In this document: positions 6,128 through 28,394 of the stretch, piece after piece
Position numbering within the stretch: position 1 is the stretch's first letter
How the letters are laid out: each line of letters begins with the position of its first letter
Source: an uncultured Clostridia bacterium
GTDB taxonomy: Bacteria > Bacillota > Clostridia > TANB77 > CAG-508
Assembly (NCBI GenBank): GCA_947588945.1
Contig: CANPZY010000002.1
Coordinates: 29,592-93,591, forward strand
Direction of reading: 5' to 3'
Length of the DNA stretch: 64,000 nt
Translations under genes and position numbers: made by a program
The notes under the pieces: generated by a model
Told to the model about the DNA's origin: nothing
The model's input: the letters and a program-made list of their open reading frames with translations, nothing else
The model's database searches: none

Positions 6128-7606
6128 ATGAGGAAAGTAAATTATAAGGAAAAAGGAATCACATTAATAGCATTAGTAATCACAATAATAATTCTATTAA
6201 TATTAGCAGGAGTAACGCTAACAACAGCATTGAGCCAAAACGGCTTATTTCAAAGAGCAAAAATAGCAGGAGAAAATTATAAAAGAGCAGAATCAGATGA
6301 GGCGGAAAAATTAGATGAATATTCAAGTGAGATTGATAAAATAATAAATGGAGAAGGAACATCATCATCAGAAGGAAAAATAAAGATAAATGAATTTTCA
6401 GTAAATGGAACAGATGTAACAGATGTACCTATTCCAGATGGCTTTGTACATGTAGGAGGAACGATAAACGACGGATATGTAATATCAGATGCACATCAAG
6501 ATGCAAACAAAGGAGCCGATTCAGATGAATTAATAGGAAATCAATTTGTGTGGGTACCAGTAAAACAAAATCAAAAAATAACATTAAAGGTGACAAGTGA
6601 GGAAGATATAACAAGTATAGTAGTAACAGATCCATATGGAAAAAAAATTTTAGAAAGAAATAATGAAGGAAAAAACTACAATAATGAAGAAATAGAGCCA
6701 ACAATAAATGGAGAATATAAAGTAAAAGTAACAACAAGTACAGGAGAGACAAGTAAATTATTAGAAGTATATAGTTTATATGCACAAAATTTTTGGATAA
6801 CGGAAAAATTAATTCTTGATTCAATTTTTGAAAGTATGAAAGCTATGGTAGAATCTCAGGGAGGAACAATAGAAGAACTTTTAGACGAAATGGATATGAC
6901 AAAAGAAGAATTAATAGAAGAATATATAGTCATGACTAAGAATGTAGAGAGCCTAGATGAATTTCTTGCAAAAATCAAAGCTCCAACTTTTTTCAAAGAA
7001 ACAGAAGATTATAAAACCAACGTAAATAAATACGGAGGATTTTATATAGGAAGATATGAGGCAGGAGTTTCATCAGCAGAAACAGATAGAACTGAATCAA
7101 GTAGTAATACGGAACAATTAGTAATACAAAAAAATAAATATGTCTATAATTATATATCATATGATGATGCATTAAATGAAGCACAAAAATATGCAACAAA
7201 TGTAGAAACAAATGCAAAAAGTTCATTATTAACTGGAGCAGCATGGGACAGAACATTAGGTTGGTTATATGAAACAGGAGATAAAACGATAGGAAAATTG
7301 ACAGTAGACAGTATGAGTTGGGGAAATTATAATGTTAATACTTTTTTTGAAAATACAGAAAATCCAAAAAAAACAGGAGAAAGTGAAAAAACAAAATCAA
7401 AAAATATATATGATTTAGCAGGAAATGTATCAGAATGGACTACAGAAGTCAATACCTCTGGAAGCGGTTGGCTTACTAGAGGCGGTATGGAGGGTGAAGA
7501 TGAAATTGTATCCGCTCGTGCAAATTTGCGCTCCTATTATGATTCCTCAAATAGAAAAACAAACATGGAAGTAGGTTTCCGCGTCGCTTTATATTTGTCG
7601 GACTGA
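6128..7606 (+). CDS. secreted pilin-like protein P1: prepilin-type leader/TM (KGITLIALVITIIILLILAGV) plus a C-terminal FGE-sulfatase-like C-type-lectin-fold domain
   Basis: N-terminus resembles a class III (type IV pilin) signal but with Ala at +5. The C-terminal domain has FGE-family motifs: ISYDDALNEAQKY, LLTGAAWDRTL, NIYDLAGNVSEWT, TRGG, VGFRVA. The last ~170 nt are GC-enriched. Confidence 0.7.
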   Translation: MRKVNYKEKGITLIALVITIIILLILAGVTLTTALSQNGLFQRAKIAGENYKRAESDEAEKLDEYSSEIDKIINGEGTSSSEGKIKINEFSVNGTDVTDVPIPDGFVHVGGTINDGYVISDAHQDANKGADSDELIGNQFVWVPVKQNQKITLKVTSEEDITSIVVTDPYGKKILERNNEGKNYNNEEIEPTINGEYKVKVTTSTGETSKLLEVYSLYAQNFWITEKLILDSIFESMKAMVESQGGTIEELLDEMDMTKEELIEEYIVMTKNVESLDEFLAKIKAPTFFKETEDYKTNVNKYGGFYIGRYEAGVSSAETDRTESSSNTEQLVIQKNKYVYNYISYDDALNEAQKYATNVETNAKSSLLTGAAWDRTLGWLYETGDKTIGKLTVDSMSWGNYNVNTFFENTENPKKTGESEKTKSKNIYDLAGNVSEWTTEVNTSGSGWLTRGGMEGEDEIVSARANLRSYYDSSNRKTNMEVGFRVALYLSD

Positions 7607-7888
7607 CAATGTGGAAGAATACAAGATCAAAAATGTGTGTAAAATGAAAATGTATTTTTTCTAACAAAAAATAGTAAAATTTATGATTTGATTAAAAGCA
7701 TCTCATGGATTTTACTATTTTTTTAATTTTTTCATAAAGCTTTTAATATATTCAACGCAATATTTTACTTTATTCGACATTTATTAATAAAAAAATTCCA
7801 ATTATATAATTGGAAAATAACAACTTAATCTAATATAGTCTTTGTAAAATACTAAAAATAGAATTTTAAATAAAATTATAGCAAATTA

Positions 7889-8096
7889 ATTAAGTAATAA
7901 ACTTAATAAAAATTTAGTATAGTCAAAATATATCATAAACCAAATAATTATACAAGTATAAAGAAAAAAATAATTAAAATTTTTTCTTTTTTTTATAAAA
8001 AATTTTCAAAAAAATTTTTAGTGATTTTATACTTATTTCAAGCATTATAGGATTTTAAAAGAAATAAATATTTTTTTATTAAGTTTATTACTTAAT
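7889..8096. promoter_or_regulatory. candidate invertible promoter switch P2: perfect 24-bp inverted repeats (7889..7912 / 8073..8096) flanking a 160-bp spacer with TTCAAA-N17-TATACT
   Basis: attaagtaataaacttaataaaaa and tttttattaagtttattacttaat are exact reverse complements; the arms are homologous to those of P1/P3/P4; the switch ends 68 bp upstream of the 8164 start codon. Confidence 0.45.
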
Positions 8097-8163
8097 AAAA
8101 ATATTATCAAATTATAGGTATATTAAGGAAATATACTTAAATATTAAGAAAAGGAGACTAAAG

Positions 8164-9756
8164 ATGAAGAAAGTAAATTATAAGGAAAAAGGAATCACAT
8201 TAATAGCATTAGTAATCACAATAATAATACTACTAATATTAGCGGGAGTAACATTAAATACAGCAATAAATCAAAATGGATTGTTTCAAAGAGCAAAGGA
8301 TGGAGCAGAAAAGTATATATTAGCACAGACAAAAGAAGAAGAAGTATTAAAAGAGTTAGAAAAATATATAGAAAGTGTAGGGAGTGAAGAAACAAATGGA
8401 AAATTCGAAAACAATGGAATAGACAAAACCCATGATGGAGCGAAATATGATCCGGTAGTAACAGATGATGGAATGTGGATAATATATAAAGATATAGATA
8501 CGAAGACAACAAAAGTAAATGTATATGTAGAATCAAAATATTATTATCCATCATTTGGACAATTTTATGTAGAAAAAGTTTGTTTGGCAGGAATCCTATG
8601 TAGTTATGGGTTACCGGTTTACAGTTTCTCTGACTTATCAGATTTTTATACGCAATTGATGATACTGAAATCCGAAGGAAGTTTAATATTTGATGAAGAT
8701 TATATAAGACAAAGAAAAGAAGAAATGAAAGTAGGAGTATTTTTTGAAGAATTATTAGAAAAAATGGGTGTAGATTTATATGACGCATATCAAGGGCTTG
8801 GAGAAATGATGATATCCGGGAAAGAAGATAACAATTTAGATGATTATATTAATGAACATGAAGAAGGAGAATTATTTTTAAATGGTATATCGTTGGCGAC
8901 GAGAAATAAACAACCAAATTTTTCTTATGAAAAATTAGAAACGACTTATAATAAGTTATATGGAGATAGAAAAGGTTTAGAAATACCAGAAAAAGAAAAA
9001 GAAAACACATATAAAATAAAATTACCAGATGGAAAAGAAGAAACAATAGATGGAACAGATTTATATAAAGCAAAATTTAGATATGTAACAACTAAAAATG
9101 AGAAAGTAGATATAGAAATAACCAAGAACGAGGATACACCACAAAAAATTACTTATGACAAAGTTAATAATATTAGTAATTGTATAGTAAAGGAAGAAGA
9201 ATACACATATACTTATAACTGTTTACCTTTTTTAGATGAGGGAAGTGGAGTTGGGATTTTTGATATAGAATCGATGATGAATGGAAATATAGATTACGAG
9301 AAAGTAGAAGACGGATTATTAAAATATAGATTTAACTTATGTGGATGGAATGTGAGTCGTAATGATATGGTTGAAGTTCTGTTTGATGGAGACGAAGAGA
9401 AATTAGAGGATTGGAAGTCTGTGAATACTGAATGCAAATACGTTGTTAATGATGAGCCTGTAACATGCATGGTTGGAACTTATTATGGGTCGACGTTAAA
9501 TTTTGATAGTATGAATATACCTGAGACAGTGGTTTACATGTTTGATACTTTTAGATCTTTTAATAATTATGGATCAAAAATAAAAGAGATTAAATTACCA
9601 AAGTCGTTAAAATATGGATCATATGTGTGTTATCCAAGTAAGAATATGAAATTTAAAATCTATGAGGGTTCGCTTACGAATAGCCCATGTTTTTTCGATG
9701 GTTATAAGCTAGAAGATATCGGGGGTAATGAGAATGATGTAGAGATATATAATTAG
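8164..9756 (+). CDS. secreted pilin-like protein P2 (530 aa) with a different C-terminal module
   Basis: First ~45 aa nearly identical to P1 and P4 (MKKVNYKEKGITLIALVITIIILLILAGVTLNTA...); the remainder is unrelated and Cys-rich. Confidence 0.7.
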   Translation: MKKVNYKEKGITLIALVITIIILLILAGVTLNTAINQNGLFQRAKDGAEKYILAQTKEEEVLKELEKYIESVGSEETNGKFENNGIDKTHDGAKYDPVVTDDGMWIIYKDIDTKTTKVNVYVESKYYYPSFGQFYVEKVCLAGILCSYGLPVYSFSDLSDFYTQLMILKSEGSLIFDEDYIRQRKEEMKVGVFFEELLEKMGVDLYDAYQGLGEMMISGKEDNNLDDYINEHEEGELFLNGISLATRNKQPNFSYEKLETTYNKLYGDRKGLEIPEKEKENTYKIKLPDGKEETIDGTDLYKAKFRYVTTKNEKVDIEITKNEDTPQKITYDKVNNISNCIVKEEEYTYTYNCLPFLDEGSGVGIFDIESMMNGNIDYEKVEDGLLKYRFNLCGWNVSRNDMVEVLFDGDEEKLEDWKSVNTECKYVVNDEPVTCMVGTYYGSTLNFDSMNIPETVVYMFDTFRSFNNYGSKIKEIKLPKSLKYGSYVCYPSKNMKFKIYEGSLTNSPCFFDGYKLEDIGGNENDVEIYN

Positions 9757-9786
9757 AAGAAAATTAAAATATAAAGGTAACAAAAA

Positions 9787-11025
9787 ATGACATTAATAAC
9801 GGAAATAATAAATTTTATAAATAAATTTTTTGGCTTTTTCAAAGTTGCAAATGGAGAAATGCATCCATATAATGATGATTTAGGATATGGAACGTTTGAA
9901 GATGCAAGGCATATATGGTGGATAGCAATAGTAATAATATTATCAATAGTTATGTACCAATATTGCAAAAAGAATAAAGAAAAAGGAAAAAAGCTAGTAA
10001 AATCAATAGTAATATTTGTGTTAGTGATAAGAATAGAATTACAAATAATAAAGTCAATAGTAGGTTGTTCATTACCATATGGAAGAGATTTAATACCGGG
10101 ACAGATGTGTACAATATTAATTTATCTTTTACCATTAATGATAATATTTGACTGGAAAAAAATAAGAACGCCAGTATGTATATTATCAATGATGGGAGCG
10201 ATAATGACGCTATTGATAAATGAATATTTTGATAGTAGATTTATGAGTTTTTATACAATAGAAGGAATATGGGCACATACAATGTTATTTGTAATACCAA
10301 TATCGTTGATAGGATTAGGAGAATTAAAATTAGAAGTAAAAAAGATATGGCAAATAATAGTAACAATGCTAATAATGATATTATGGGCAATATTCTTGAA
10401 TAAGGTTATGTTAAAAAATTATGAACCAAATTATTTTTACTTAGAGAAGAATATGTTACCGGGTAATCTAGGTGGGAAATATTTCTTTGGAATATATACG
10501 ATAATATTTTTTGTATTATTAGGAATAATATATATATTGCCAGTAATAATAAGAAAATTATCAAAAGTATTAATAAGAGGGAATGAAAAAATAAAGAAGA
10601 AAATAACAGTAATAGCAATAGTAAGTATATTAATAATAGCAGAGATATTAACAATAGGAGCAGAGACAAATAGAAAGACAAAAGTAAATGAAGAAGAGAA
10701 ACAGATAAATTTAGCAATATTATTAAGTATGGTAGAGAATAAATCACTAGATTTTAGAGAAGAGCAAATACAAGAAAGATTAGATAGTATAGTAGGAGAG
10801 AATAAAGTAGAAGTAAAAAAAGGAATAATAGGATTAAAAGTAAAATTTAAAGAGACAGGGAATAAATATAAAACAATAAATGCAAAATCAAATATAAAAG
10901 CGATAGTAATAAAAGGAAAGGTAAGAGAGATATTAAAATATATATTAGAAGCAATATTAATAGTAAATTTAATAATAGTGATATTTTTAATTTATAAAGG
11001 TAGAAAAGAAGTATATAAAGTATAA
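9787..11025 (+). CDS. polytopic membrane protein (412 aa), unknown function
   Basis: Multiple hydrophobic helices; lysine-rich C-terminal tail. Confidence 0.45.
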   Translation: MTLITEIINFINKFFGFFKVANGEMHPYNDDLGYGTFEDARHIWWIAIVIILSIVMYQYCKKNKEKGKKLVKSIVIFVLVIRIELQIIKSIVGCSLPYGRDLIPGQMCTILIYLLPLMIIFDWKKIRTPVCILSMMGAIMTLLINEYFDSRFMSFYTIEGIWAHTMLFVIPISLIGLGELKLEVKKIWQIIVTMLIMILWAIFLNKVMLKNYEPNYFYLEKNMLPGNLGGKYFFGIYTIIFFVLLGIIYILPVIIRKLSKVLIRGNEKIKKKITVIAIVSILIIAEILTIGAETNRKTKVNEEEKQINLAILLSMVENKSLDFREEQIQERLDSIVGENKVEVKKGIIGLKVKFKETGNKYKTINAKSNIKAIVIKGKVREILKYILEAILIVNLIIVIFLIYKGRKEVYKV

Positions 11026-11119
11026 AAAAGTAAAAGTTAAATTGATTAAAAAGAAATATAAATCCTTTATATTTGTGAGTATTTTAAAAGGATAAATAAT
11101 ATAATTATTTTTGTTTAAT

Positions 11120-11295
11120 TAAAAAGATTAATAAAAAATAAATATATACAAAGTTTAGCAAAATAAAGGTAATTATAAAAGTAAAAGAGATATAAAAATT
11201 ATTACAAAAATGTAAAGGAAATTAAGTATAAATTCTTGCAGAATCATTGAAATAAATGAATTACAAGGGTTTATATTTTTTTATTAATCTTTTTA
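11120..11295. promoter_or_regulatory. candidate invertible promoter switch P3: 19-bp inverted repeats (11120..11138 / 11277..11295), 138-bp spacer, ~95 % identical to P1
   Basis: Same arms as P1; the spacer contains ttcttgcagaatcattgaaataaatgaattacaaggg. Confidence 0.4.
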
Positions 11296-11428
11296 ATTAA
11301 TAAAACATATAGAAATAAAATTTTATAATGTATTGACTTAACACTGTATAAATAATAAAATTTGTATGATAATAAATATAAAATTTTACTGATTAAGATA
11401 AAAATACAAAAGAAGGGAAAGTTGAAAA

Positions 11429-13327
11429 ATGAGCAAAATTAAATTTATAAAAAAGAATCAAGATGAAAGTGGTATTACTTTAGTTGCATTAGTAGTTACT
11501 ATCATAATTCTTTTAATATTAGCAGGAATAACACTAAATGGAGCATTAAGTGCTAATGGACTATTTATAAGGGCAAAACAGGCTGCTGAAAAATATAAGA
11601 ATGCTGAAGAAATTGAAGAAGAACAATTGAGAGAAATTGAAAAACAACTTGACAACAAGAATTCTATAAATTCAGTTATTAAAGTAAAAGGTGTCGATTT
11701 TGACAGTAATGAATCAATAGGTAACTGGAAATTTAGTATATGTAAAGATAAAGAATGTCTTCAACCATTAGGAATCGATATTAAAGTTGGAGATAGTGGT
11801 GAAGCTGATTGTTCATCTCTTATAAAAGAAGCTGGTACCTATTATGTTGGTGTTACAGAACCTCCTGAATATAAAGATTTACCATTCGAATTATTTGAGT
11901 TTAACGTTGCAGATATAGAAGAAGAGCAAGATCTTGTTATTAAATTTAAAGGAGAAAGTTTGTCTGGAACAGGCCCATATCAAGGAACTTTCAATGGCTC
12001 AGATTCACCTGCCGAAAATACAGAATTTGATAAGAATGTTTCTTTACAAATCAGTTTTGGTGATTATGTTGAAATAAATCAATATAATTATTCTTCAAAT
12101 GGTAAAAAATTCTATCCTATAGATGACTCATATAGTTTAGCTCAAGAATTAAAGAATTCAAATTTTGAAATTGATTTTTATAAAATAGCTGAGTGGGATT
12201 CAGGCAAAAGTGAAGTTGTTTTAGATAATAATTTTAAAGACTTAAATAATGTTGATACATCTGATTTAGATACTGGTTCTACAATAGATCCTATTCTAAC
12301 AACAAGAATTAAAAATATAATAATAAAAAATAAATTGAAACCGACTGTTTCATATCAATATAGTGGTGAAAATATGTTACAATTAGAAAATGACACACAA
12401 CTAAAGAAGAAAGATTTCTACTTAATAGTACCACATGCTTCAAATAGTGAATTCGGAAAGGCATATACTAAATATTATGAAGTAGATTTTATACCTGCAA
12501 TTATTTCGTTTGTATATGCAAATGAAAATGGAGATAGTTTATATGATGTGTCTCTCGAAATAGATGCTGTAAATGCAAATAATATATTCTCTGATATTAA
12601 GATAGTTAATAACATAACAAATACTCCAGAAGGATCTTTTAAGACACAAGATTTTATATATGAAATTACTGCTGAACTTAATGGAGAGCATATGTATGAT
12701 GATATTATAGCAACTGAATGTGAAAATGAAGGAGAAAATACTTATTCAGCTGACAATTTGCCAGTTGGTTTAGAATATAGAATTTTCCCTTTATATTATG
12801 GAAATCAATGTTATCTTACTTCTGCAGATGAAGTAACAAGTGTAGTAATGAATGAAGAAGAAAACAATGTAGAATTCAATTTTGAATATTCTAATAATGG
12901 TAATAAAGATATATCTATACTTGAATATGAAGTTAAATATAACGATTATTACGAACAATGGGAAATTGAGTCACAAAATAGAAATCTTATAAATGATAAA
13001 ATTAATATAATTGATAATGGAGATGATTCAGAGAAAAATTCATTAAAAAGCATAGAAATAAAAAATACTGATTCAACTGATAAATATATCCGTTTTAAAA
13101 TCTTATCTTCACTAAATTTAGTATATTATTGTTCTGAGGAGGATAAATGGGTAAATAGTGATGAATTCTGGTATTATTCAAGCCAAGTTTCATCAAATGG
13201 CACAACTGGAAACTTACCTTTTGATATTTCTTTATCGGACTACGATGGACAACCATGTACTTATAATATAGTAATTATAGTAGAGTCAACAAATGCAGAT
13301 GATGAAGGAAATGCAAATTGGGAGTGA
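11429..13327 (+). CDS. secreted pilin-like protein P3 (632 aa)
   Basis: N-terminus ...DESGITLVALVVTIIILLILAGITLNGALSANGLFIRAKQAAEKYK is homologous to the P1/P2/P4 leader module; the C-terminal region is unrelated. Confidence 0.65.
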   Translation: MSKIKFIKKNQDESGITLVALVVTIIILLILAGITLNGALSANGLFIRAKQAAEKYKNAEEIEEEQLREIEKQLDNKNSINSVIKVKGVDFDSNESIGNWKFSICKDKECLQPLGIDIKVGDSGEADCSSLIKEAGTYYVGVTEPPEYKDLPFELFEFNVADIEEEQDLVIKFKGESLSGTGPYQGTFNGSDSPAENTEFDKNVSLQISFGDYVEINQYNYSSNGKKFYPIDDSYSLAQELKNSNFEIDFYKIAEWDSGKSEVVLDNNFKDLNNVDTSDLDTGSTIDPILTTRIKNIIIKNKLKPTVSYQYSGENMLQLENDTQLKKKDFYLIVPHASNSEFGKAYTKYYEVDFIPAIISFVYANENGDSLYDVSLEIDAVNANNIFSDIKIVNNITNTPEGSFKTQDFIYEITAELNGEHMYDDIIATECENEGENTYSADNLPVGLEYRIFPLYYGNQCYLTSADEVTSVVMNEEENNVEFNFEYSNNGNKDISILEYEVKYNDYYEQWEIESQNRNLINDKINIIDNGDDSEKNSLKSIEIKNTDSTDKYIRFKILSSLNLVYYCSEEDKWVNSDEFWYYSSQVSSNGTTGNLPFDISLSDYDGQPCTYNIVIIVESTNADDEGNANWE

Positions 13328-13518
13328 TTAGAAAATAATTATATAGTAAAAAAATGCATAAAACTTTTTATGCATTTTTTTTACTAATTTAATACTATAA
13401 TGTAGGTGTTACTATTTCTGATGAAAAAATAAAATCGATTAAAAAGAAATATACAAATCCTTGAAAAAATATATAAAAGATGATATTTTATATATAAAAA
13501 TATAGGAGGATAAAAGTA

Positions 13519-14890
13519 TTGGCAAAAGCAAAAACAGTATTTGTGTGTAGTGATTGTGGATATGAATCTCCAAAATGGCTTGGAAAATGCCCAGCATGTA
13601 ATGCTTGGAATACATTTTACGAAGAAAAAGTACAAGTTACAACATCATCTGGAACTAATGTAAAAATTAAGGAAAAAGCAAAACCACTTAACTTAAATGA
13701 AGTAAAAGGCGAAGAAGCAATTAGAACTAAGACTGGAGTTGAAGAATTAGACAGAGTTTTAGGTGGTGGAATTGTAAAAGGTTCACTGGTTTTACTTGGA
13801 GGAGAGCCAGGAATAGGAAAATCAACTCTTATTTTGCAGATTTGTGATAAAATAGGAACAGATGGAAAAGTGTTGTATGTATCTGGAGAAGAGTCAGCAG
13901 AACAGGTTAAGTTAAGAGCAGATAGACTTAATATAAAAAATGATAATATAATGTTTTTAGGAGAAACTGATATTGATGCAATTGAAGCAGAAATTTTAGA
14001 GATGAATCCAAAACTTGTTGTTATTGATTCTATTCAAACAATGTTTTCAAATGAAATTACATCAGCACCAGGAACGGTAAGCCAAGTTAGGGAGATTACA
14101 GCAAGAATAATGAAATGTTGTAAGCAAAACAAAATAACTACAATCATTATTGGTCATGTGACAAAAGATGGCAATATAGCAGGACCAAGAGTATTAGAAC
14201 ACATGGTAGATACAGTTCTTTATCTAGAAGGGGAAAGATTTTTTTCATATAGAATATTAAGAGGTGTAAAAAATAGATTTGGTTCAACAAATGAAGTTGG
14301 AATGTTTGAAATGCAAAATGAAGGAATGTGCGAGGTAACAAATCCATCTAAAATGCTTATTTCAGAAGAACAAGGACAGATCCCTCGGAACGGCAATAGT
14401 ATGTAGCTTAGAGGGAACAAGACCACTTTTAGTAGAACTTCAAGCATTAACCACACAGAGTTTTTATGGGATTCCTAAAAGGACAGGCAGTGGTATAGAT
14501 TTTAATAAAATTGCTTTATTAGTAGCTGTACTTGAAAAAAGAGCTCATTTAAGCTTAGGAAATCAAGATATATATTTGAATGTAGTAAGTGGTATGAAAA
14601 TAAATGAGCCAGCAATTGATTTAGGAATTGCATTAGTTATAGCGTCGAGTTTTAAAAATACATATATTTCAAAAGATACGGCTATAATAGGAGAAGTGGG
14701 TTTAACTGGTGAAATAAGAGCAGTAAATATGATAGAAAAAAGATTAAAAGAAGCAGAAAGACTTGGAATAAAAAAATGCATAATTCCAGAAAATAACAAA
14801 AAACACTTGAAAAATACTTATAAATTAGATATAATAGGTGTTAGAAATGTAAATGAAGCTTTGGATATTTGCTTTTTACGAAAGGAATGA
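13519..14890 (+). pseudogene. radA: DNA repair protein RadA, interrupted by a +1 frameshift (extra C at 14386)
   Basis: Zinc-finger CSDCGYESPKWLGKCPACNAWNT, Walker A GEPGIGKST and KNRFG motif, then ...ISEEQGQIP reads into a stop. The Lon-like C-terminus continues in the +1 frame as GTAIVCSLEGTRPLLVELQAL... Removing C14386 (in cctCgga) restores a single reading frame. Confidence 0.85.
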
Positions 14891-15948: not shown

Positions 15949-16034
15949 TAGTATATTATTTTAGTAATTATTATTTATAACAAAAAGGTCATAGGCGACA
16001 CCATAAGCCTAAATACATAAAAAGGAATATAACA

Positions 16035-17009
16035 ATGAAAGAAAACAATAATAAAACAAATAAAACAGAAAAAGTAAAAAAAGAAGAAACAAGTAAAGTA
16101 AATTATTTTGCAATTGTAATTACAATAGTAGCTATGCTAATAGTTATTGCATTAATTGCTTATGTAGTAAATACAATTATTCTAAAATATACATATGTAT
16201 CTAAGAATCCAGTAGCAACTATAGAAATTAAAGATAAAGGAACTATACAAGTAGAGTTATATCCACAATATGCACCTAACACAGTTGCAAATTTTATAGC
16301 ATTAGCTAATAATGGTTTTTATAATGGATTAACATTCCATAGAACAATACCTGAATTTATGATACAAGGTGGAGATCCTAATGGGGATGGTACAGGTAAT
16401 GCAACTATAAAGGATTTAGTAAAAAATAATTTAGACAATTATAAAGAAGAAGTTACAGTAGATAATGAAAAAATTGAAGTTTATAAGATTTATGATAGAT
16501 ACTTCACAGAAGATTCAAATAAAGTAGATAAAACCTTTAAAAAGAATGGTAAAGATTATGTTATAGAAGATATAAATCAAAAGTATGTTATAAAAGGTGA
16601 ATTTATTATAAATAACTTTAATCAAAATACTTTAAAACATACTAGAAATATCATTTCAATGGCTAGATCAGATTATAGTTCAATATCAGGTTTAGCTACT
16701 AAAGGATATGATTCTGCTTCTTGTCAATTCTTTATAGTAACAGCAGATTCATCAAGTTTAGATGGTACATATTCTGCATTTGGTAAAGTTACATCTGGAA
16801 TGGAAATAGTTGATGAAATCTCAAATGTTGAGGTTGAAACTAGAGAAACAAATGATGAAAACTTGACTGCAGATAAGCCAGTAGATCCACCAGTAATAAA
16901 TTCAATTACAGTTGATACATTTGGTATTGATTATGGATTACCAGAGATACTAGAACCATTTGATTATTCTTCATATTTAATGTCACAATACGGTGGAAGT
17001 TCATATTAA
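16035..17009 (+). CDS. membrane-anchored cyclophilin-type peptidyl-prolyl cis-trans isomerase
   Basis: N-terminal TM; motifs [15 protein letters not shown] and [16 protein letters not shown]. Confidence 0.8.
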
Positions 17010-20322: not shown

Positions 20323-20425
20323 TATAAGATGTTGTAAATTAATAATAAAGAATATTCATAAAACTTAAAATTAGTGAGAAATAATATAAATTTAACTTAA
20401 AATGATGTGCTGAAAGGAGAATTAA

Positions 20426-20908
20426 ATGGCATTAAGAGAAGTAAGAAAAGAAGGAGACGAAATTTTAAGAAAAAAATCAAGAAAAGTTGAAGTAATTGAT
20501 GATAAAATTAAAGAATTAATTAAAGACATGGATGAAACTATGCATTATTATAATGGTGTAGGAATTTCTGCTGTACAGGTTGGAGTTTTAAAAAGAGTCA
20601 TTGTAATTGACATTAATTATGATGGAACACCTTCTTTAATATTGATAAATCCAGAAGTTGTAAAAACAAAAGGAAGTCAAGAATGTCAGGAAGGATGTTT
20701 AAGTTTTCCAAATAAATTTGCAAAGGTCATAAGACCTAGTGAAGTTACAGTTAAAGCTTTAAATGAAAACGGAAAAAAGATTACAGTTAGAGGAAAAGGA
20801 ATTCTTGCAGAGGCACTTTTACATGAAATAGACCATTTAGATGGAATTCTTTTTGTTGATATAATGGAGCCGGGAACTCTTGAGTATATAGAAAATAAAG
20901 AAGACTAG
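20426..20908 (+). CDS. def: peptide deformylase
   Basis: Motifs GVGISAVQVG, EGCLSFP, HEIDHLDG. Confidence 0.9.
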   Translation: MALREVRKEGDEILRKKSRKVEVIDDKIKELIKDMDETMHYYNGVGISAVQVGVLKRVIVIDINYDGTPSLILINPEVVKTKGSQECQEGCLSFPNKFAKVIRPSEVTVKALNENGKKITVRGKGILAEALLHEIDHLDGILFVDIMEPGTLEYIENKED

Positions 20909-20973
20909 AAATTTAAAATAAAAAGTTTATAGGTGAAACTTAAAACCTAAATTTATTTATAAGGAAAAATCTA

Positions 20974-22008
20974 ATGAGAATAATTTTTATGGGAACACCA
21001 GATTTTGCACAAAAATCATTAAAGGCATTATATGAATCTGGAAATGAAATAATAGCAGTAGTTACAAATCAAGATAAACCAAAGGGAAGGGGAATGAAAT
21101 TAATAACATCCCCTGTTAAAGAATATGCATTAGAGAAAAATTTAAAGATTTATCAGCCAATAAAAATTAGAAAAAATGTTGATTTTATAAATGAGATTAA
21201 AAGTTTAAATCCTGATTTACTTTGTGTAGTAGCTTATGGAAAAATACTTCCTAAAGCATTACTAGATATTCCAAAATATGGAGCCATAAATGTTCATGGT
21301 TCGCTTCTTCCAAAATATAGAGGTGCTGCACCAATTCAATGGGCAGTATTAAACGGAGATAAAGAAACTGGAATAACTACAATGTTTATGGATGAAGGTA
21401 TGGACACAGGAGACATGATATTAAAAGAAAAAGTTCAGATAGGAGAAGATGAAACAACAGGAGAGCTATGGGAAAGGTTATCAAAGGTTGGAGCAAAACT
21501 TTTAGTTGAAACTGTAAATAAATTAGAAGAAGTAGTGCAAAACATCAAATTGACAAATGAAATTTTAGATGAGGATCAAAAAGAAAAATTAAAAGAAGAA
21601 GTAAAAAATAAAATAGGAGCAGAAAAACAAGAAGGAGAATTTACTATTGCACCAATGTTAGATAAAGAAATGGCCTTAATTGATTGGAATAAAAATGCTA
21701 AACAAATTAAAAATTTAGTAAGAGGATTAAATCCTATAATGGGTGCATATTCATTTTTAGAAGGCAAAAAAATAAAAATATGGAAAGTAAAAGAACTTGA
21801 AAAAATAGATGGAATCGCAGATGATAATATGCAAAATGGTGAGGTTGTAATCTCAGATAAGAAGAAAGGTTTATTTATAAAAACAGCAAATGGAATAATT
21901 GAGGTATTAGAGATTCAGGGTGAAAATGGCAAGAAAATGGATATAAAGTCATTTTTAAATGGAAATCAAATAAAAGAAAAAACAGTTTTTTCTGATAAAA
22001 TTTTGTAA
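20974..22008 (+). CDS. fmt: methionyl-tRNA formyltransferase
   Basis: MRIIFMGTPDFA..., NVHGSLLPKYRGAAPIQWA. Confidence 0.9.
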   Translation: MRIIFMGTPDFAQKSLKALYESGNEIIAVVTNQDKPKGRGMKLITSPVKEYALEKNLKIYQPIKIRKNVDFINEIKSLNPDLLCVVAYGKILPKALLDIPKYGAINVHGSLLPKYRGAAPIQWAVLNGDKETGITTMFMDEGMDTGDMILKEKVQIGEDETTGELWERLSKVGAKLLVETVNKLEEVVQNIKLTNEILDEDQKEKLKEEVKNKIGAEKQEGEFTIAPMLDKEMALIDWNKNAKQIKNLVRGLNPIMGAYSFLEGKKIKIWKVKELEKIDGIADDNMQNGEVVISDKKKGLFIKTANGIIEVLEIQGENGKKMDIKSFLNGNQIKEKTVFSDKIL

Positions 22009-22049
22009 AAAGCTTAGTATGACAAATAATATCTTTTCTTTTTAGGTAA

Positions 22050-22090
22050 AAATACCATCTAATAGTATTCTATTAGGTGGTATATTTTTG
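22050..22090. terminator. bidirectional hairpin terminator between convergent fmt and 22117..22728
   Basis: Stem accatctaatag / tattaggtggt followed by a T run. Confidence 0.5.
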
Positions 22091-22116
22091 ACTAAAAAGT
22101 ATTTGATTAATAAAAT

Positions 22117-22728
22117 TTACAAAAAAGCATTTAACTTATTTATATTATCTCTTTGGAATTTATTAAAGTCTTTTAGTAAATCAGTTGTGCTATCTTCTAT
22201 ACATAAATTACAATTTAAGATTTTTTGACATTCAATAACTCCCATAAGTGTTCCTTGTATCATCATTTCGGCAATATGAGAATTTGTACTATCTCTCAAA
22301 AGATTCATCTTTATTCCATAACAGCTCATCATTTTAGTGTATCTTGGGGTATCTTCTGGAATTTCTCCATATTTTTCAAAATGTTGATTTACTTGATGTA
22401 AAATGTTTGAGTATTGTGAATACATGGAAACAAGAAGCTTTTTCATTTCTTTGTCAGAAATTTTATTTGTTAAAAAAGATATACTACTCATACCCATTTG
22501 AGCAATTTTGCTAATTTCATTTAAAACAGCTAAATCAATATCGAAACAATTAAAGTCATCAGTTGAGTTACAAGACTCATTAGATTTCTTATTATCTGAA
22601 GATTCATCAGAAAGTTCAGGTTTTCTAGAATCAGTGATATTGTCAGATATATTGCTTTTCTTCTCATCCTCTTTTGAATCCATAGTGATATCTTCAGCGC
22701 TATTTTTGAGTGATTTATTCTTATCCAT
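22117..22728 (-). CDS. hypothetical acidic protein; possibly a coat-F-like helical protein
   Basis: 203-aa ORF with a Ser/Asp-rich N-terminus and a helical C-terminal half; assignment is weak. Confidence 0.35.
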   Translation of the reverse strand: MDKNKSLKNSAEDITMDSKEDEKKSNISDNITDSRKPELSDESSDNKKSNESCNSTDDFNCFDIDLAVLNEISKIAQMGMSSISFLTNKISDKEMKKLLVSMYSQYSNILHQVNQHFEKYGEIPEDTPRYTKMMSCYGIKMNLLRDSTNSHIAEMMIQGTLMGVIECQKILNCNLCIEDSTTDLLKDFNKFQRDNINKLNAFL

Positions 22729-22884
22729 AAAAAATTATCCTTTCTTTATTAAGTTAGAAAATAACCAAATAAAAATTTATTTATCATGTATTTTGCCCAT
22801 AATCTGAAAAAATATTATTGAAATAAGCAAAAAACTAGAGTATACTAAAAAAGAATAATAACAAAAAGGAGTAATCTTAAAAAA

Positions 22885-25800
22885 ATGGAATGGACCAAAG
22901 AACAAAAACAAGCAATTGAAAAAAATGGATCAAATATTTTAGTGTCTGCATCTGCAGGATCTCGGAAAAACTAGCGTATTAGTAGAAAGAATAATCAACA
23001 AAGTAATTAATCAAAAAATTGATATTGATAAACTTTTAGTTGTTACTTTCACAAATGCAGCAGCAAGTGAAATGAAGCAAAGGTTTTTAGATGCAATTTA
23101 CAAGAATATTGACAAAAATCCAGATGATGAGTATTTGCAAAAACAGATACTTTTATTAAATAGAGCTCATATTAGCACCATTCACTCTTTTTGTTTAGAT
23201 GTAATTAGAAATAATTTTTTTGAACTTGGAATTCCAGCAAACTTCAGAGTTGCAGATACAACAGAAATAAGCATAATGAAACAAGAAGTAATTGAGGATA
23301 TTTTTGAAAAGAAATATGAAGAAAATAATGAAGATTTTATAAATTTGTTAGAATTGTATACAACATATAAAAGTGATGACGCTTTAAAAGAAATTATTTT
23401 AAATATATATGAATTTACTAGATGTGTACCAAATCCAGAAAAATGGCTTGAAGAAAAAGTTGAATTATTAAATATAAAAGAAGAAGATTTTTTAAATACT
23501 ATCTGGGGTGAGATGTTATTTTCTAATGCAAAAAAATTAATAAATGATGCAATATCTAATCTTGAAATTTCAAAAAAAATACTTGAAGACCAGAGTGAAT
23601 TAGTAGATTGCATGGCTTTAGTAATGCAAGATTTTGATGATATATCAAGAATAAATACCGATACTTGGGATAATTTATATAAGGGAATATGTGACAAAGA
23701 ATTTGATAGGTGGTCAGGAAAAAGAAAATTTTCTTCTGAGGAAATTAATAAAATAAAAAATGATGCCAAAATATATAGAGATGAAGCAAAATCTTTAGTT
23801 GATTCAGAATTAAGAAACTTAATAAGTTGTACTTCAAAAGATGCAATAGAAGATATTAAAGCAATGTATCCAATTTTAAAATCAATAGAAGATTTAGTAT
23901 TAGATTTTTCAACTGAATTTGAGAGGAGAAAAAGAGAAAAAAATATTGTTGATTTTTCTGATATAGAGCACTTAGCTTTAAAACTTTTAATAGATGAAAG
24001 TGGAAAGAAAACAAAGATAGCAGAAAAATATAATTTTGAGGAAATAGATGTTGACGAATATCAAGATATTAACTTAATTCAAGAGAGTTTATTAAATAGT
24101 GTTTCTAACGGAAAAAATATTTTTATGGTTGGAGATGTAAAGCAAAGCATTTATAGATTCAGACAAGCAAGACCTGACTTGTTTTTAAGCAAATATGAAA
24201 AATATAAAAAAGATGACACTGAAGAAAATAACTTAAGCACTGATACTAAAATACAGCTTTATAGTAATTTTAGAAGTAGAGAAACAGTAATTAATTTAAC
24301 TAATCAGATATTTGAATGTATAATGAGCAAAGAATTAGGCGAAATGAATTATGATAAGGATGAATATTTAAACTTTGCCGGAACTTTTGATGAACCAAAA
24401 ATAGATTGTATAGCAGAGCTAAATGTAATAGAACTTGAAGATATGGATGGAGCACTAGATGAAACAAAAGAAAAAATTGATACTCAAGAAATAGAACCAG
24501 ATGCAGAGGATAGCGAAGATGAAGAACTTTTAGAAAAGTCAGTCTTAGAAGCAAGATTTACGGCTACAAAAATAAAAGAGTTAGTAGATAAAGGTTATAA
24601 TTACAAGGATATATCTATTCTTTTAAGAAGTCCTTCAAGCATTGCACCAATATATGAAAAAGAATTAATCGAGCAAGGCATACCTGTATTTTCAGATACT
24701 GCCTCAGAATATCTTGCATCAATAGAAATTGATACTATTATTTCAATATTGAAAATAATAGATAATCCACTTCAAGATATTCCTCTTGTAACTGTTCTAA
24801 GATCTCCAATTTTTAGCTTTAGTGAAAATGAATTAATGGAAATAAGACTTAACAAAACTAAAGTACCATTTTTTAGGGCATTGCAAGAAACAAAAACTGA
24901 CAAGGTAAAAAGATTTTTAAAACTACTAGATGAATGGAAAAAAGATGAAAAAGAATTACCTTTAGATGAATTAATTTGGAAAATATATTCACAAACCGGA
25001 TATTATCATTATGTAAGATTAATGCCTAACGGAAAATTAAGACAAGCTAATTTAAAAAAGCTATTTGAAAAAGCTAAAGATTATGAAAAGATTAGTTTTA
25101 AAGGGGTATTTAATTTCATTACATTTATCGAAAAAATTTCTAAAGAAAAATCAAGTATACAAGAAGCAAAGATAATTGGCGAAAATGATGATGTTGTCAG
25201 AATCATGAGTATACATAAAAGCAAAGGATTAGAATTTCCAATAGTATTTTTATGCGGTGTAGATAAACAAATGAATTTGAGAGATTTGAATGAAAAAATT
25301 GTTTTGGATCAAGATATTGGGATAGGTGTCAACTTAGTAAAAGATGGCTTAAATTACTCTACTTTAAGCAAAGAAGCAATTAAGATGAAAATGAGAAAAG
25401 AAGCTATCTCAGAAGAAATGAGAGTTTTATATGTAGCACTAACTAGAGCAAAAGAAAAATTGATTATCGTAGGTGCAGACAGAAAGGTAAATACAACTTT
25501 AGAAAAAAAGAAAGCTGAATTAGAAAAGTATAAAAGAATTGCTGGAATTAGTCCAAAATTAGTTGGAGACTATATAAGATACTTAGATTGGATTGAACTT
25601 GTATATTTATATAATCCAAGACTAAGCCTAAAATTAGATGTAATAGACAAAAATTCACTTATTAATTTAAAAAAGGAAAAGAGTGAAGAATTAGATGAAA
25701 TTAACTTTAATAGAAAAGTAGATAAAGAAAAATATAAAAAGGTTGATGAATTACTAAATTGGGAATATAAGTATAAAAATACTGTTGAATTGCCAAGCAA

Positions 25801-26422
25801 TGCATCTGTTACTCAATTAAAGGAAGAAAATCAGAATAAAGACGATAAAGAACTAGAACAAGGAAATGATGAAGTACAAAATTTATTTGTAAATAATTTT
25901 AACAATACTTTAGAATCTGATTATTTTGAGAATAAACATGATATAGAGATTAAAGGCGCAAGACTAGGAACTTTAATACATTTAGCTTTACAAAAAATTA
26001 GTATAACAACAAAAGATATTGAAAAATTAATTGAATCATTAAAAATTACTCAAGAAGAAAAAAATTCATTGAGGAAAGATAAATCTATTTTTGAAGATTA
26101 TATGAATTCTGAGCTTTTTGAGGATTTAAAACAAGCGAAAGAAATAAATAAAGAAAAACCTTTTTATATGAAAATACCTTATGAAGGTACAGAAGAAAAT
26201 GTTTTAGTACAAGGTGTTATTGATTTATATTATGTTGATAAAGATGATAAATTAATACTTGTAGATTATAAAACAGATAGAAATGTAAATGAGAAAGAAT
26301 TAATAGATAGATATAATTATCAATTAAGCTTATATAAGGAAGCGATAGAGAAATCTTTAAAGAGGAAGGTTGATAAAACATTAATATATTCAACTTATTT
26401 AGGAAAAACAATAGAATTATAA
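22885..26422 (+). pseudogene. addA: ATP-dependent helicase/nuclease subunit A (AddA), +1 frameshift inside the Walker A motif (extra C at 22963)
   Basis: MEWTKEQKQAIEKNGSNILVSASAGS then R K N stop. In the +1 frame GKTSVLVERIINKV...VVTFTNAAASEMKQR continues into the 1116-aa ORF (UvrD-like helicase plus C-terminal PD-(D/E)xK nuclease, VDYKTD). Removing C22963 (tctCgga) gives AGSGKT. Confidence 0.85.
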
Positions 26423-26494
26423 TAGATGATTTTTAAGTTAGATGATAAAGGCATGATAAAGATTATTAATAAAAAGAGGAGTTTTACATAAAAT

Positions 26495-26731
26495 ATGAGA
26501 ATAGACAAATTTTTAAAGGTATCAAGAATAATAAAACGTAGAACGATTGCTAATGAAGCAGCTGATAATGGAAGAATTTCAGTAAATGGAAGAGTTGTAA
26601 AACCAAGTTATGAAATTAAAATTGGTGATATTGTAGAGATAAGGTTTGGAAATAATACATCAAAATTTAAAATAATTGCTATTCCAAAAGGACAAAATTG
26701 CAATGCAAGTGAGGTAATAGAGCTATTGTAA
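26495..26731 (+). CDS. S4-domain RNA-binding protein (YabO/HslR-like)
   Basis: [49 protein letters not shown] is an S4 fold. Confidence 0.7.
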
Positions 26732-26760
26732 AGTGTAGATATGTATAAGCTTATATATTA

Positions 26761-26784
26761 GGTCAAGTGAAAAAGTAAATGCAA
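26761..26784 (+). repeat. copy 2 of the 24-nt motif GGTCAAGTGAAAAAGTAAATGCAA
   Basis: Exact copy; 450 bp upstream of P4. Confidence 0.6.
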
Positions 26785-26911
26785 TTTGTAGATATGCAAC
26801 AATTAATAATTACAATAAATTAAGTATAGAAATAAAATTTATAATGATATTGATTTATAAATTTTAATTATAAAATAAAATCATTAGAAAAATTATTTTT
26901 ATTTAATTAAT

Positions 26912-27086
26912 TTAAAAGATTAATAAAAAATAAATATATAATATATATAGCATAATAAAGTCAATTATAGAATAAAAAGAAATAAAAAAATATTACAAAA
27001 TTGTAAAGAAATTTAATTATAAACTCTTGCAAAATCATTGATATAAATGAATTGCAAGAGTTTATAATTTTTTATTAATCTTTTAA
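26912..27086. promoter_or_regulatory. candidate invertible promoter switch P4: 19-bp inverted repeats (26912..26930 / 27068..27086), 137-bp spacer with a perfect 12-bp palindrome overlapping TTGATA-N18-TATAAT
   Basis: Arms ttaaaagattaataaaaaa / ttttttattaatcttttaa; the spacer contains aaactcttgcaa-N18-ttgcaagagttt. Confidence 0.4.
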
Positions 27087-27209
27087 CTTAATAAAACATA
27101 TAGAAGTAAAGTCTTATAAAGTATTAACTTAATACTTTAAAAATAATAAAATTAATATAAATAATAAATATAAAAAAGCAAATAATAAAAAAGAAGGAGA
27201 AAGCGAAAG

Positions 27210-28394
27210 ATGAGAAAAGTAAATTATAAGGAAAAAGGAATCACATTAATAGCATTAGTAGTAACAATCATAATATTACTAATATTAGCAGGAGTAACAC
27301 TAACAACAGCATTGAGTCAAAATGGATTATTTCAAAGGGCAAAGATAGCAGGAGAAAAATATAAAGAATCAGAAGAAGATGAGACAGAAAAATTAAGGGA
27401 AGTAGAAAAAGAGATAGATAAAATAATAAATGGAGAAACTCCACCAGACCTACCAAATCCTCCAACGCCACCATCAGGCGGAATAGGAAGTAGTGACATA
27501 GCAGGAAATTTAAAAGAATATCAAGGAAAATATGTAGACATAGGTGTGGATATAAATGGAAATGAAAGTACAGCGGATGATTGGGAATTATTTTATGCAA
27601 CAGATGATAGAATATTTTTAATAGCAGCAGATTGTGTGCCAGTAACCAAACTAGGAGAGTGGAAGGTGATAGGAGAGAACGCAACAAATACTAATGGTTT
27701 CCAACAAGATTCTAGCAATACATATGATGTTTACTGGCCGAGTGGTCCTACGGCATTCTTAACTTTGCCAACAATAGACAACTTTTTGAAGACAGTAATG
27801 CATGAAGAATTTGATTTGTATCTAGTTAAGAAAAAATATAGTGGGATGGCGGTATCACAATTATTAAATACAAACGTATGGGATGAAATAAAAAATGAAG
27901 CAGATAAGGTGCATCCAGATTGTGTAGACTTTGCAATCGGAGGACCAACATTAGAGATGTGGTGTGCAGCATGGAATGAGGCAGTAGGAACAGATGATGC
28001 TACATTTAAACAAATACAACCAGACGGTTCTGGTGAAAATGGATATTGTGTAGGATGTACTGCAACGGGTAAGACTGAACAAAATAGTTTATATATGGAT
28101 GGAAATACGAGTGGACTAGAAAGTAATTTAACAACATTAGGAAATGATTATAAAACATTTTTCCCACACGTTGGCAGTGCTAAGTTGGGTGGAAGTTTGG
28201 GATATTGGTTGGCTTCGCCTTCCTCTGGCCACCTCGTTATGTCCTTGATGAGTGTCCGCTATGACGGCCGCGTGACCTACGCCGACTATAACGTCATCGG
28301 CTTTGGGGTTCGTCCGGTAGTTTCTCTACGATCTGGAGTCCAAATAGTAGAGAGGGCAGAACCGAAGAACATATACGACTTGGCGACTGAGTAA
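27210..28394 (+). CDS. secreted pilin-like protein P4 with a C-terminal DUF1566/C-type-lectin-fold domain that carries a DGR variable repeat
   Basis: Leader MRKVNYKEKGITLIALVVTIIILLILAGV, Pro-rich linker PPDLPNPPTPPSGG, then a C-terminus ...GYWLASPSSGHLVMSLMSVRYDGRVTYADYNVIGFGVRPVVSL whose DNA (28207..28325) matches the AAC-rich template repeat at 28824..28939 apart from substitutions at template adenines. Confidence 0.75.
   Translation: MRKVNYKEKGITLIALVVTIIILLILAGVTLTTALSQNGLFQRAKIAGEKYKESEEDETEKLREVEKEIDKIINGETPPDLPNPPTPPSGGIGSSDIAGNLKEYQGKYVDIGVDINGNESTADDWELFYATDDRIFLIAADCVPVTKLGEWKVIGENATNTNGFQQDSSNTYDVYWPSGPTAFLTLPTIDNFLKTVMHEEFDLYLVKKKYSGMAVSQLLNTNVWDEIKNEADKVHPDCVDFAIGGPTLEMWCAAWNEAVGTDDATFKQIQPDGSGENGYCVGCTATGKTEQNSLYMDGNTSGLESNLTTLGNDYKTFFPHVGSAKLGGSLGYWLASPSSGHLVMSLMSVRYDGRVTYADYNVIGFGVRPVVSLRSGVQIVERAEPKNIYDLATE
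28207..28325 (+). repeat. DGR variable repeat (VR) at the 3' end of P4
   Basis: A 17-nt identical 5' anchor (ggttggcttcgccttcc) and a shared 3' end (gggggttcg.ccggtag.ttct). In an 81-nt cleanly aligned stretch, about 16 of 19 mismatches fall where the TR has A (AAC versus GGC/CGC/GAC/TAC/GCC/GTC/ATC). Confidence 0.7.

Follow-up and report, generated by a model that had tools for sequence, protein, structure and literature searches.

Four genes with a common pilin-like head, exchanged C-terminal modules and candidate invertible promoters in an uncultured Clostridia bacterium

The locus and its gene family

Four genes, P1 to P4, are read from the plus strand of the window, as we call the whole 64-kb stretch of DNA analysed here, which comes from an uncultured Clostridia bacterium. 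They begin alike and end differently, and lie among their neighbours as follows.

4350..5795, plus strand: GtrII-like membrane glycosyltransferase, upstream of P1 (Pfam Glucos_trans_II, 3.2e-14)
6128..7606, plus strand: P1, 492 aa; pilin-like head, Ig-like and helical middle, FGE/C-type-lectin domain
8164..9756, plus strand: P2, 530 aa; P1-type head, unannotated tail
9787..11025, plus strand: TMEM164-type membrane acyltransferase, between P2 and P3 (Pfam TMEM164, 1.2e-19)
11067..11089, plus strand: copy of the end of the GtrII-like gene (HLCVF and stop, last ~21 nt), before P3
11429..13327, plus strand: P3, 632 aa; diverged head, with a SpaA-type domain in a relative of its tail
27210..28394, plus strand: P4, 394 aa; P1-type head, Pro-rich linker, VR-bearing lectin-fold domain

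A first-pass annotation of this DNA had described P1, P2 and P4 as sharing a near-identical head, with about 85% nucleotide identity between P1 and P4 over some 230 nt, and P3 as carrying a diverged version of it. Measurement agrees: P1 and P4 are 86.0% identical over 228 coding nt (87% in protein), codons 1-45 are 88-90% identical among P1, P2 and P4, and the P3 head, which has a longer N-terminus, keeps 63-71% protein identity to the others. The block of homology is wider than was then described, including as it does upstream DNA, and runs from about 320-350 nt 5' of the ATG to codon 66-76. Duplication of the gene end HLCVF before P3 is likewise borne out, positions 5775-5797 and 11067-11089 being identical at about 19 of 22 nt. 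Downstream portions had been called unrelated, and indeed BLASTP finds no similarity in any pair of tails, the best match (E 0.11) being a 12-mer around KNIYDLA. These comparisons support a modular family in which one head is joined to exchanged C-terminal modules.

The descriptions earlier given to individual tails need revision. P2, said to be Cys-rich, has only 9 Cys in 454 residues; P3, said to be acidic, is no more so than other genes of the family, and a relative of it matches the SpaA prealbumin-like domain. For P4, labelled a DUF1566-like lectin, the C-type-lectin/FGE fold stands and DUF1566 does not: relatives of P4 match DUF6273, and the P4 tail itself has no Pfam match. The C-terminal part of P2 (9354-9753) differs between two assemblies, with 20 nonsynonymous against 6 synonymous codon changes. 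Far beyond this locus, the head recurs in 19,857 cluster representatives (50% identity clusters, E<=1e-3) from gut Clostridia MAGs; it is N-terminal in all but one of the best 150 of these 19,857 matches, and the partner domains of head-family proteins include Glug, FGE-sulfatase, SpaA, LRR_5, Flg_new and Big_2.

The head and the elements upstream of it

Read from its sequence, the head carries a class III signal, made of a basic leader, Gly at -1 and a hydrophobic helix (MRKVNYKEKG, then ITLIALVITIIILLILAG). In an alignment of 80 diverse family members this helix is near-invariant (G10 I11 T12 L13 A15 L16 V17 T19 I20 ... A27 G28), and the residue at +5 is Ala, not Glu, A15 being found in at least 90% of family sequences. 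Type IV pilins and pseudopilins (N_methyl, PF07963, with Glu5-less minor pilins such as GspK) likewise have a short basic leader whose last residue is Gly, the pattern G-ITLIAL..., and a very highly conserved hydrophobic helix (about 21 residues) with an amphipathic one after it. The P heads depart from them in the invariance of Ala at +5 and in sub-threshold Pfam and NCBIfam scores, as well as in what follows, a large adhesin-type domain after a flexible linker. The pilin-like leader with Ala at +5 seen in the first pass holds as a resemblance. AlphaFold models show a membrane helix, a second helix (40-73) that is free (pLDDT ~40-75) and then a disordered linker, with no pilin alpha-beta head.

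The head may deliver the protein to the surface or anchor it there, perhaps via a pilus-type machinery. It could also be no more than a Sec signal peptide or signal anchor, perhaps cut after TALS and before Q, leaving the proteins secreted or membrane-tethered with no link to a pilus; this is a quite tenable alternative, although we lean slightly away from it. Besides the missing Glu and the missing pilin head, it can call upon N_methyl scores that stay below threshold in all four genes (14.8-18.8 bits, cut-off 21.2), on the lack of any match to NCBIfam pilin models in P1-P4, and on the absence of pilus assembly genes adjoining P1-P4; within the 64 kb of genome, a Tad-like locus at 34.8-45.1 kb gives a weak T2SSE match only. 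Generic N-terminal membrane segments are moreover present in most cellular targets of diversity-generating retroelements (DGRs; PMC8144416), which the P proteins resemble in having such a segment. The G-[IF]-T-L-I-x-L pattern, however, fits a class III signal, and the hydrophobic segment barely varies among the 80 aligned members. Signal peptides are usually poorly conserved, and conservation this high is typical of pilin alpha1-N helices; Glu5 is absent, too, from the minor pilins found at filament tips.

In front of each P gene lies an element, newly described here, bounded by inverted repeats.

5815..6016, unstranded: P1 upstream element (arms 5815-5846 and 5985-6016; 138 nt between)
7870..8115, unstranded: P2 upstream element (arms 7870-7912 and 8073-8115; 160 nt between)
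11106..11309, unstranded: P3 upstream element (arms 11106-11138 and 11277-11309; 138 nt between)
26893..27105, unstranded: P4 upstream element (arms 26893-26931 and 27067-27105; 135 nt between)

All four have a perfect inverted-repeat core of 18-27 bp in arms of 32-43 nt, enclosing 135-160 nt, and apart from the four P loci the window has no copy of the core. The P3 element is 96.5% identical to that of P1; the P2 element has arms of a different sequence in the same layout, and no significant hairpin. Inverted repeats are also found at related loci, in nine homologous elements and two of unrelated sequence, with scores of 21-28 against a null maximum of at most 15. A minus-strand extended -10 promoter motif, of the TTGATT-17-TGC-TATATT type, has one constant location in 12 of 13 elements; it points away from the P gene and, wherever an upstream ORF is visible, towards the 3' end of a co-directional gene. 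Every element but that of P2 (12 of 13) has a hairpin (dG -14 to -25 kcal/mol, z -5 to -11) directly next to the T-run in its right arm.

To judge by its sequence, the element resembles an invertible promoter caught OFF. Its closest described analogue is the cwpV switch of Clostridioides difficile, where 21-bp inverted repeats bound a 195-bp invertible segment that depends on RecV, where about 5% of cells are ON, and where the published genome has the OFF orientation (PMC2784873). The two are alike in having a segment bounded by inverted repeats (135-160 nt here, 195 bp there) that precedes the gene of a surface protein by some 90-150 nt, a terminator-like hairpin at one end and an assembled orientation that looks OFF, and in the conserved N-terminus and variable C-terminus of the protein. 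They differ in that the promoter of the P element is apparently inside it, as in the fimS or cmrRST switch, that the P elements are known from sequence in one orientation, with no recombinase seen, and that four paralogous candidate switches occur within a single 22-kb stretch. If the assembled orientation is indeed the OFF one, each adhesin would be ON in a minority of cells.

Another reading, possible but rather doubtful in our view, is that the element never inverts and serves as a fixed module for regulation or insulation, such as a bidirectional terminator with an antisense promoter, or a long-range helix in the leader RNA. In keeping with this, A- and T-runs on either side of the hairpin give it the look of a bidirectional terminator, no inverted copy was found and all 13 homologous spacers have one orientation, in agreement with four to five assemblies of the species (L001-L004), consensus assemblies being blind to minority orientations. 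The 64-kb window also holds no intact recombinase, though the RecV of C. difficile too acts from a distance. Against a fixed module stand the repeat cores, which are perfectly Watson-Crick with a single G:T pair among their mismatches, and which covary between loci even where the sequence is unrelated (L066, L081). In addition, the conserved promoter serves no gene in the present orientation, and position, size and class of gene are those of known Clostridioides switches.

The lectin tails and a decayed retroelement

The C-terminal domains of P1 and P4 both have the C-type-lectin/FGE fold and are in this respect of the kind targeted by DGRs, as the first pass had proposed for P1. Around the ends of the two genes we find the following.

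7442..7606, plus strand: VR-like tail of P1, a putative orphan; GC-rich, A-poor, with many NNC codons, the homologous stretch being hypervariable in relatives
28205..28325, plus strand: VR of the DGR, inside P4, paired with the TR
28464..28739, plus strand: Avd remnant (bAvd profile positions 24-107 of 107), without start codon
28822..28939, plus strand: TR of the DGR; 25 mismatches at TR adenines, 4 non-A mismatches in the core, one 3-nt indel
29228..29740, minus strand: reverse transcriptase fragment (RVT_1 profile positions 61-202 of 205); motifs 1-2 and thumb missing
29990..30695, plus strand: excisionase-type HTH gene (HTH_17 match) and broken integrase-like ORFs, a mobile-element remnant

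At the DGR of P4 there is neither an intact reverse transcriptase nor an intact accessory protein, only fragments, that of the reverse transcriptase aligning to about residues 135-298 of an intact 386-aa DGR enzyme. We take the P4 tail to be the VR of an adjoining DGR that is now dead. In two other MAGs, intact or partial DGRs target head-bearing genes (loci L087, L084). The integrase-like ORFs (30254-30695) are broken and were assigned by inspection, a Pfam search of the ORFs at 29990..30695 giving no integrase match.

P1 is a different case. Its tail (7442-7606) has GC 0.436, GC3 0.36 and A 0.285, all three outside every one of 1,314 in-frame 165-nt control windows from 20 housekeeping genes (extremes 0.424, 0.29 and 0.297), which upholds the GC enrichment reported earlier; the profile of the gene is not uniform. 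The other 450 nt of the lectin domain are native (GC 0.284, GC3 0.11), the anomaly being limited to the last 55 codons, with its boundary inside the domain at the position equivalent to a VR, and NNC codons number 13 of 54 in the tail against 7 of 150 immediately before it. Among P1-like tandem paralogues of a rabbit-gut MAG the same signature is clear in two of three and weaker in the truncated third, and when P1 relatives are grouped at 90% identity, two clusters have 27-28 variable columns in the tail bin, every other bin having 0-12. Adenine depletion together with NNC codons characterises cDNA made on an AAC-rich template repeat. The P1 tail may thus have been written by reverse transcription of such a repeat, its adenines randomised and its NNC codons kept. 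Since the rest of the domain is native and relatives vary in the same stretch, the tail is read here as an orphan VR; we only infer its past writing by a DGR, from composition and relatives, because no TR-like copy, looked for as the first pass had suggested, exists in the 64-kb window and because the tail is identical in five assemblies (the window and four others).

An orphan VR would explain the GC-rich tail of P1 without a higher-GC donor. Import of the lectin tails, that of P1 included, from such a donor, possibly with the DGR, was the first-pass annotation's view and is quite improbable: to be sure, the GC of both the P1 tail and the P4 VR greatly exceeds that of the genome, the body of the P4 domain is mildly raised (GC 0.375; GC3 0.22 vs 0.13) and excisionase and integrase remnants flank the DGR, but the P1 anomaly starts within an otherwise native domain, consists of adenine loss and NNC codons and not of a general shift in GC3, recurs in paralogues of another AT-rich MAG and falls where P1 relatives are hypervariable. 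For the P4 domain, a mobile origin is a plausible but weak suggestion, to which the mild GC3 rise and the remnants beside the DGR point. KNIYDLA, formerly taken as a motif used in common by P1 and P4, looks coincidental in its resemblance to the FGE motif, because the P4 copy, at the extreme C-terminus after GVRPV, lines up by position (by eye) with VDVYDVTR of the homologue P0123.

P1 and P4 share with known DGR variable proteins (TvpA of Treponema denticola, TaqVP of Thermus aquaticus, Mtd of Bordetella phage BPP-1) the C-type-lectin/FGE fold, a VR at the extreme C-terminus ending in GFR... or GVRPV and, in P4, a VR/TR pair with adenine-specific mismatches. Unlike these, they have a pilin-like N-terminal helix instead of a lipoprotein or phage-fibre domain and a local DGR that is decayed, with P1 lacking a TR in the window, and they belong to a set of paralogues among which non-lectin modules are in use as well. 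Type V pilus adhesins of Bacteroides, diversified by DGRs as outlined in bioRxiv 10.1101/2024.11.15.621889, are, on that outline, comparable as DGR-diversified adhesive surface appendage proteins of gut bacteria, and differ from the P family in phylum, pilus type and N-terminal module.

What the family may mean for gut Clostridia

We consider it rather likely that P1-P4 are paralogues which encode cell-surface binding proteins and are built on a single reusable 5' cassette, with the P4 tail the VR of a dead DGR and the P1 tail an orphan VR. The cassette would comprise, in order, the regulatory element bounded by inverted repeats, the leader region, the strongly conserved pilin-like N-terminal helix (KG, then ITLIALVITIIILLILAG, with Ala at +5) and a second helix, or 'stalk', ending near codon 73-76, where recombination would have fused it to unrelated binding modules. 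A far bolder proposal, unlikely as it stands, would make the Glu5-less head a universal adaptor in gut Clostridia, loading dozens of adhesin 'tips', with lectin, SpaA, LRR, Glug and other modules, onto a single pilus or pseudopilus apparatus, each tip behind its own invertible promoter and some diversified by DGRs, with three layers of variation: choice of module, ON/OFF switching and hypermutation.

With about 20,000 clusters at 50% identity, the head marks out an unnamed and very large family of probable surface proteins in uncultured gut Clostridia. Where AT-rich genomes carry short 3' tails that are rich in GC and poor in adenine, these receive a mechanistic explanation as footprints of DGRs, and could mark a gene as a DGR target, present or past, even after the retroelement has been lost. 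Phase variability of the P genes is proposed from sequence alone; if the proposal is true, this lineage combines module swapping with ON/OFF switching and with targeted hypermutation in one and the same gene family, a combination that would bear on host colonisation and on evasion of phages or of immunity.

Four paralogous genes with a common pilin-like head

Four genes of the window begin alike and end differently:

6128-7606: P1
8164-9756: P2
11429-13327: P3
27210-28394: P4

Their products start with M(R/K)KVNYKEKGITLIALV(I/V)TIIILLILAGVTL, present in P3 in a diverged version. P1, P2 and P4 are 88-90% identical over their first 45 codons, and the first 228 coding nt of P1 match those of P4 at 86.0% identity. 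Local alignments carry the family homology from about 320-350 nt before the ATG to codon 66-76 (P1/P4, 5805-6355 against 26889-27437, 85.7% identity; P1/P3, 5775-6326 against 11067-11641), while BLASTP finds no similarity among the four proteins past codon 76. The modular family described in the first-pass annotation, a common head followed by unrelated tails, is thus confirmed, with a repeat larger than had been seen. Because the P1/P3 alignment begins within the end of the GtrII-like glycosyltransferase gene upstream of P1, about 21 nt of that end (HLCVF*) were copied before P3, as had also been noticed. A second GtrII-like paralogue (54399-55877, minus strand) has a C-terminal end, ...EEQLIFQDDTLHLCNY, that resembles ...EEQLIFEGDTLHLCVF of the gene before P1, and 53-nt direct repeats lie upstream of it (55905-55957 and 56321-56373).

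The names first given to the tails fared less well. The "Cys-rich" P2 shows 9 Cys among 454 residues, the acidity of P3 is no higher than that of the other P proteins (one P3 relative has a SpaA prealbumin-like domain), and relatives of P4 match DUF6273 instead of DUF1566. Homologues number >7,600 for the C-terminal module of P1 and 2,437 for that of P4; a PDB sequence search with both proteins gave no matches.

The genes sit in an AT-rich stretch (GC about 27%) that also holds ribosomal, glycolytic and DNA-repair genes. Four ENA metagenome assemblies contain sequence matching it at 99.8-100%, and the closest relatives of the genes studied come from uncultured Clostridia MAGs of rabbit, chicken, sheep, mouse and human gut. 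Its radA gene (13519-14890) is apparently split into a 295-aa ORF and a 104-aa ORF with a Lon-like C-terminal part, and the two-ORF gene calls are identical in another assembly (L001).

When 1.84 billion cluster representatives were searched exhaustively with the 76-residue head, 19,857 proteins matched (E<=1e-3). Of the best 150, all but one carry the head at the N-terminus; lengths in this set run from 58 to 706 aa, and the partners in 80 longer matches were Glug, FGE-sulfatase, SpaA, LRR_5, Flg_new, Big_2, fn3 or no known domain. An initial head-only homologue search returned proteins of <=132 aa only and was hence uninformative on partner domains. As viral contigs gave only 7 matches, all weak, and no DGR was found in those contigs, the head family is essentially cellular.

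Across the head-family sequences aligned, the hydrophobic helix is almost without change, Ala at +5 included, and this extreme conservation argues for a head that is more than a plain signal peptide. AlphaFold models give two helices (9/13-35 and 40-73) with an SQNG kink between them, followed by a disordered linker that leads into the globular part. The likeness to type IV pilins proposed earlier is real, but it is limited to the class III-signal-like N-terminus: the four P genes hit Pfam N_methyl only below its gathering score (14.8-18.8 vs 21.2 bits), NCBIfam has no pilin match for them, and pilin identity is unproven. Elsewhere, in a Tad-like locus, four paralogues (starts 41479, 42079, 43218 and 43720; span 41479-44544) have a common conserved N-terminus, MENA(S/T)(K/D)AL... 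followed by a hydrophobic helix, and no Pfam matches. The secretion-ATPase-like gene of this locus consists of two overlapping ORFs (37391-38797, with a weak T2SSE match only, and 38769-39302); the split (37391-39302) may reflect a frameshift, or the gene may be a pseudogene.

An inverted-repeat element ahead of each P gene

Beyond what had been annotated, every P gene has ahead of it a segment of 135-160 nt between inverted repeats of 32-43 nt; the right arm begins 91-152 nt from the ATG. Nine loci in related MAGs carry a homologous element whose spacer measures 138-140 nt, and two further loci have the same layout with unrelated inverted-repeat sequences. The repeats score 21-28, against <=15 in Markov-shuffled controls; their perfect core of 18-27 bp varies in sequence from locus to locus, complementarity being kept and G:T pairing almost absent. 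Within the enclosed segment, on the minus strand and 14 nt from the left arm, lies a near-consensus extended -10 promoter motif (TTGATT-17-TGC-TATATT), found at the equivalent position in 12 of 13 elements; in every case with a visible upstream ORF this putative promoter faces the 3' end of that gene, which is co-directional. Twelve of the 13 elements also have a covarying hairpin at the right end, directly next to the T-run of the right arm (dG -14 to -25 kcal/mol, z -5 to -11); the P2 element has no significant hairpin. Rfam contains no RNA family matching 5700-13500, and a generic promoter and terminator scan (58 sites vs 62 expected) is uninformative in DNA so AT-rich.

A dispersed MITE is rejected, the repeat core being restricted, as a pair, to the four P loci within the window. 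One lone copy of the core with one mismatch (AAAAAGATTAATAAATAA, 34762-34779), its partner arm absent, sits some 20 nt ahead of the gene that opens the Tad-like locus. On balance, we lean towards reading the anatomy of the element as that of an invertible promoter set to OFF. In size and context the closest system is the cwpV switch of Clostridioides difficile, with 21-bp repeats, a 195-bp segment and about 5% of cells ON, in an organism whose genome was published with the switch in the OFF orientation (PMC2784873). The spacer has one and the same orientation in all 13 elements, and an inverted-repeat pattern scan of JGI metagenomes for flipped switches yielded 12 matches, all of them chance (very AT-rich contigs, no head gene). 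Since consensus assemblies cannot reveal minority orientations, the switch is something that we infer. The loci of two well-sampled relatives, P0317 (10 samples) and P0393, were discarded as candidate switches: their promoters are of the ordinary forward type, inverted repeats are absent, and the recombinase beside P0393 belongs to an IS cluster.

Variable tails and the probable footprint of a retroelement

The end of P4 is followed by the remains of a DGR:

28205-28325: VR, in P4, pairing with the TR
Between VR and TR: Avd fragment, covering bAvd profile positions 24-107, without start codon
28822-28939: TR
Minus strand: RT fragment, without motifs 1-2 and thumb
After the RT fragment: excisionase-type gene and broken integrase-like ORFs

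The VR and TR differ by 25 mismatches at TR adenines, four non-adenine mismatches in the core and one 3-nt indel. Because Avd and RT survive as fragments only, the DGR is degraded; to judge from its sequence, it would formerly have written the P4 tail and would now be unable to. A full cassette on a head-bearing gene at one retrieved locus (L087; target, Avd-like ORF, TR and 386-aa RT) and a VR/TR pair at another (L084) indicate that such genes serve as DGR targets outside this window too. Exact-protein look-ups of P4 and its downstream neighbour for VR alleles returned no record. Two Logan contigs from different runs (L006, L007) end at one base, about 26854, which is 123 nt past an S4-domain gene and some 35 nt short of the start of the upstream sequence shared by P1, P3 and P4; this stop may be a repeat-induced break, or a strain-variable junction ahead of the P4/DGR region.

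In P1, analysis of GC and codon usage bears out the compositional oddity of the tail (7442-7606) that had caught the eye: none of its values for GC (0.436), GC3 (0.36) and A (0.285) is reached by any of 1,314 control windows, and 13 of its 54 codons are NNC, as opposed to 7 of the 150 ahead of it. The rest of the domain, 450 nt before the tail, is native in composition (GC 0.284, GC3 0.11). The higher-GC donor first proposed for the tails could not account for an anomaly that begins within the domain, and for P1 such a donor is unneeded; retrohoming from an AAC-rich template would have left this composition. The KNIYDLA motif, taken earlier as a link between P1 and P4, is probably a chance match, because by eye the P4 homologue P0123 carries VDVYDVTR at the corresponding extreme C-terminus.

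Relatives of P1 bear on the same question. A rabbit-gut MAG (GCA_947630445.1, locus L113, 5028-11539) has three tandem P1-like paralogues, a Fic-domain gene separating the second and third. Two of the three have tails with GC 0.42-0.455 and A 0.24, against GC 0.28-0.31 and A 0.46-0.48 upstream; the signature is weak in the first, which is truncated inside the tail (RGGSIRL*). Two clusters of P1 relatives, each at 90% identity, have 27-28 variable columns in the 40-column bin homologous to the tail, against 0-12 in each of the other bins, discrete variable positions alternating with fixed RGG, PAS and GFR anchors. Composition, paralogue signature and this focused variability point to the P1 tail as the counterpart of a VR, in a family whose members are diversified by DGRs in nature. 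The lectin-tail reading is supported. Self-BLAST and an adenine-tolerant ungapped scan found no TR-like copy of it in the window (top score of the scan 13.5 vs 49.7 for the true P4 TR), and the tail is unchanged across five assemblies.

P2 varies too. Three independent contigs terminate precisely at 9106, inside the gene, and 32 of the 34 differences between a fourth assembly and the window over 16 kb fall within 9354-9937, those inside P2 making 20 nonsynonymous vs 6 synonymous codon changes. The P2 C-terminus and the start of the next gene (9106-9937) are thus a strain-level hypervariable patch, for which no TR-like copy was found. P0486-P0488, short sequences grouped as "members" with P2, proved to be unrelated Tara Oceans fragments.

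The P1-P4 family belongs to known kinds, as membrane-anchored DGR targets and probably phase-variable surface proteins, and what makes it interesting, and testable, is that it would unite several mechanisms of variation.
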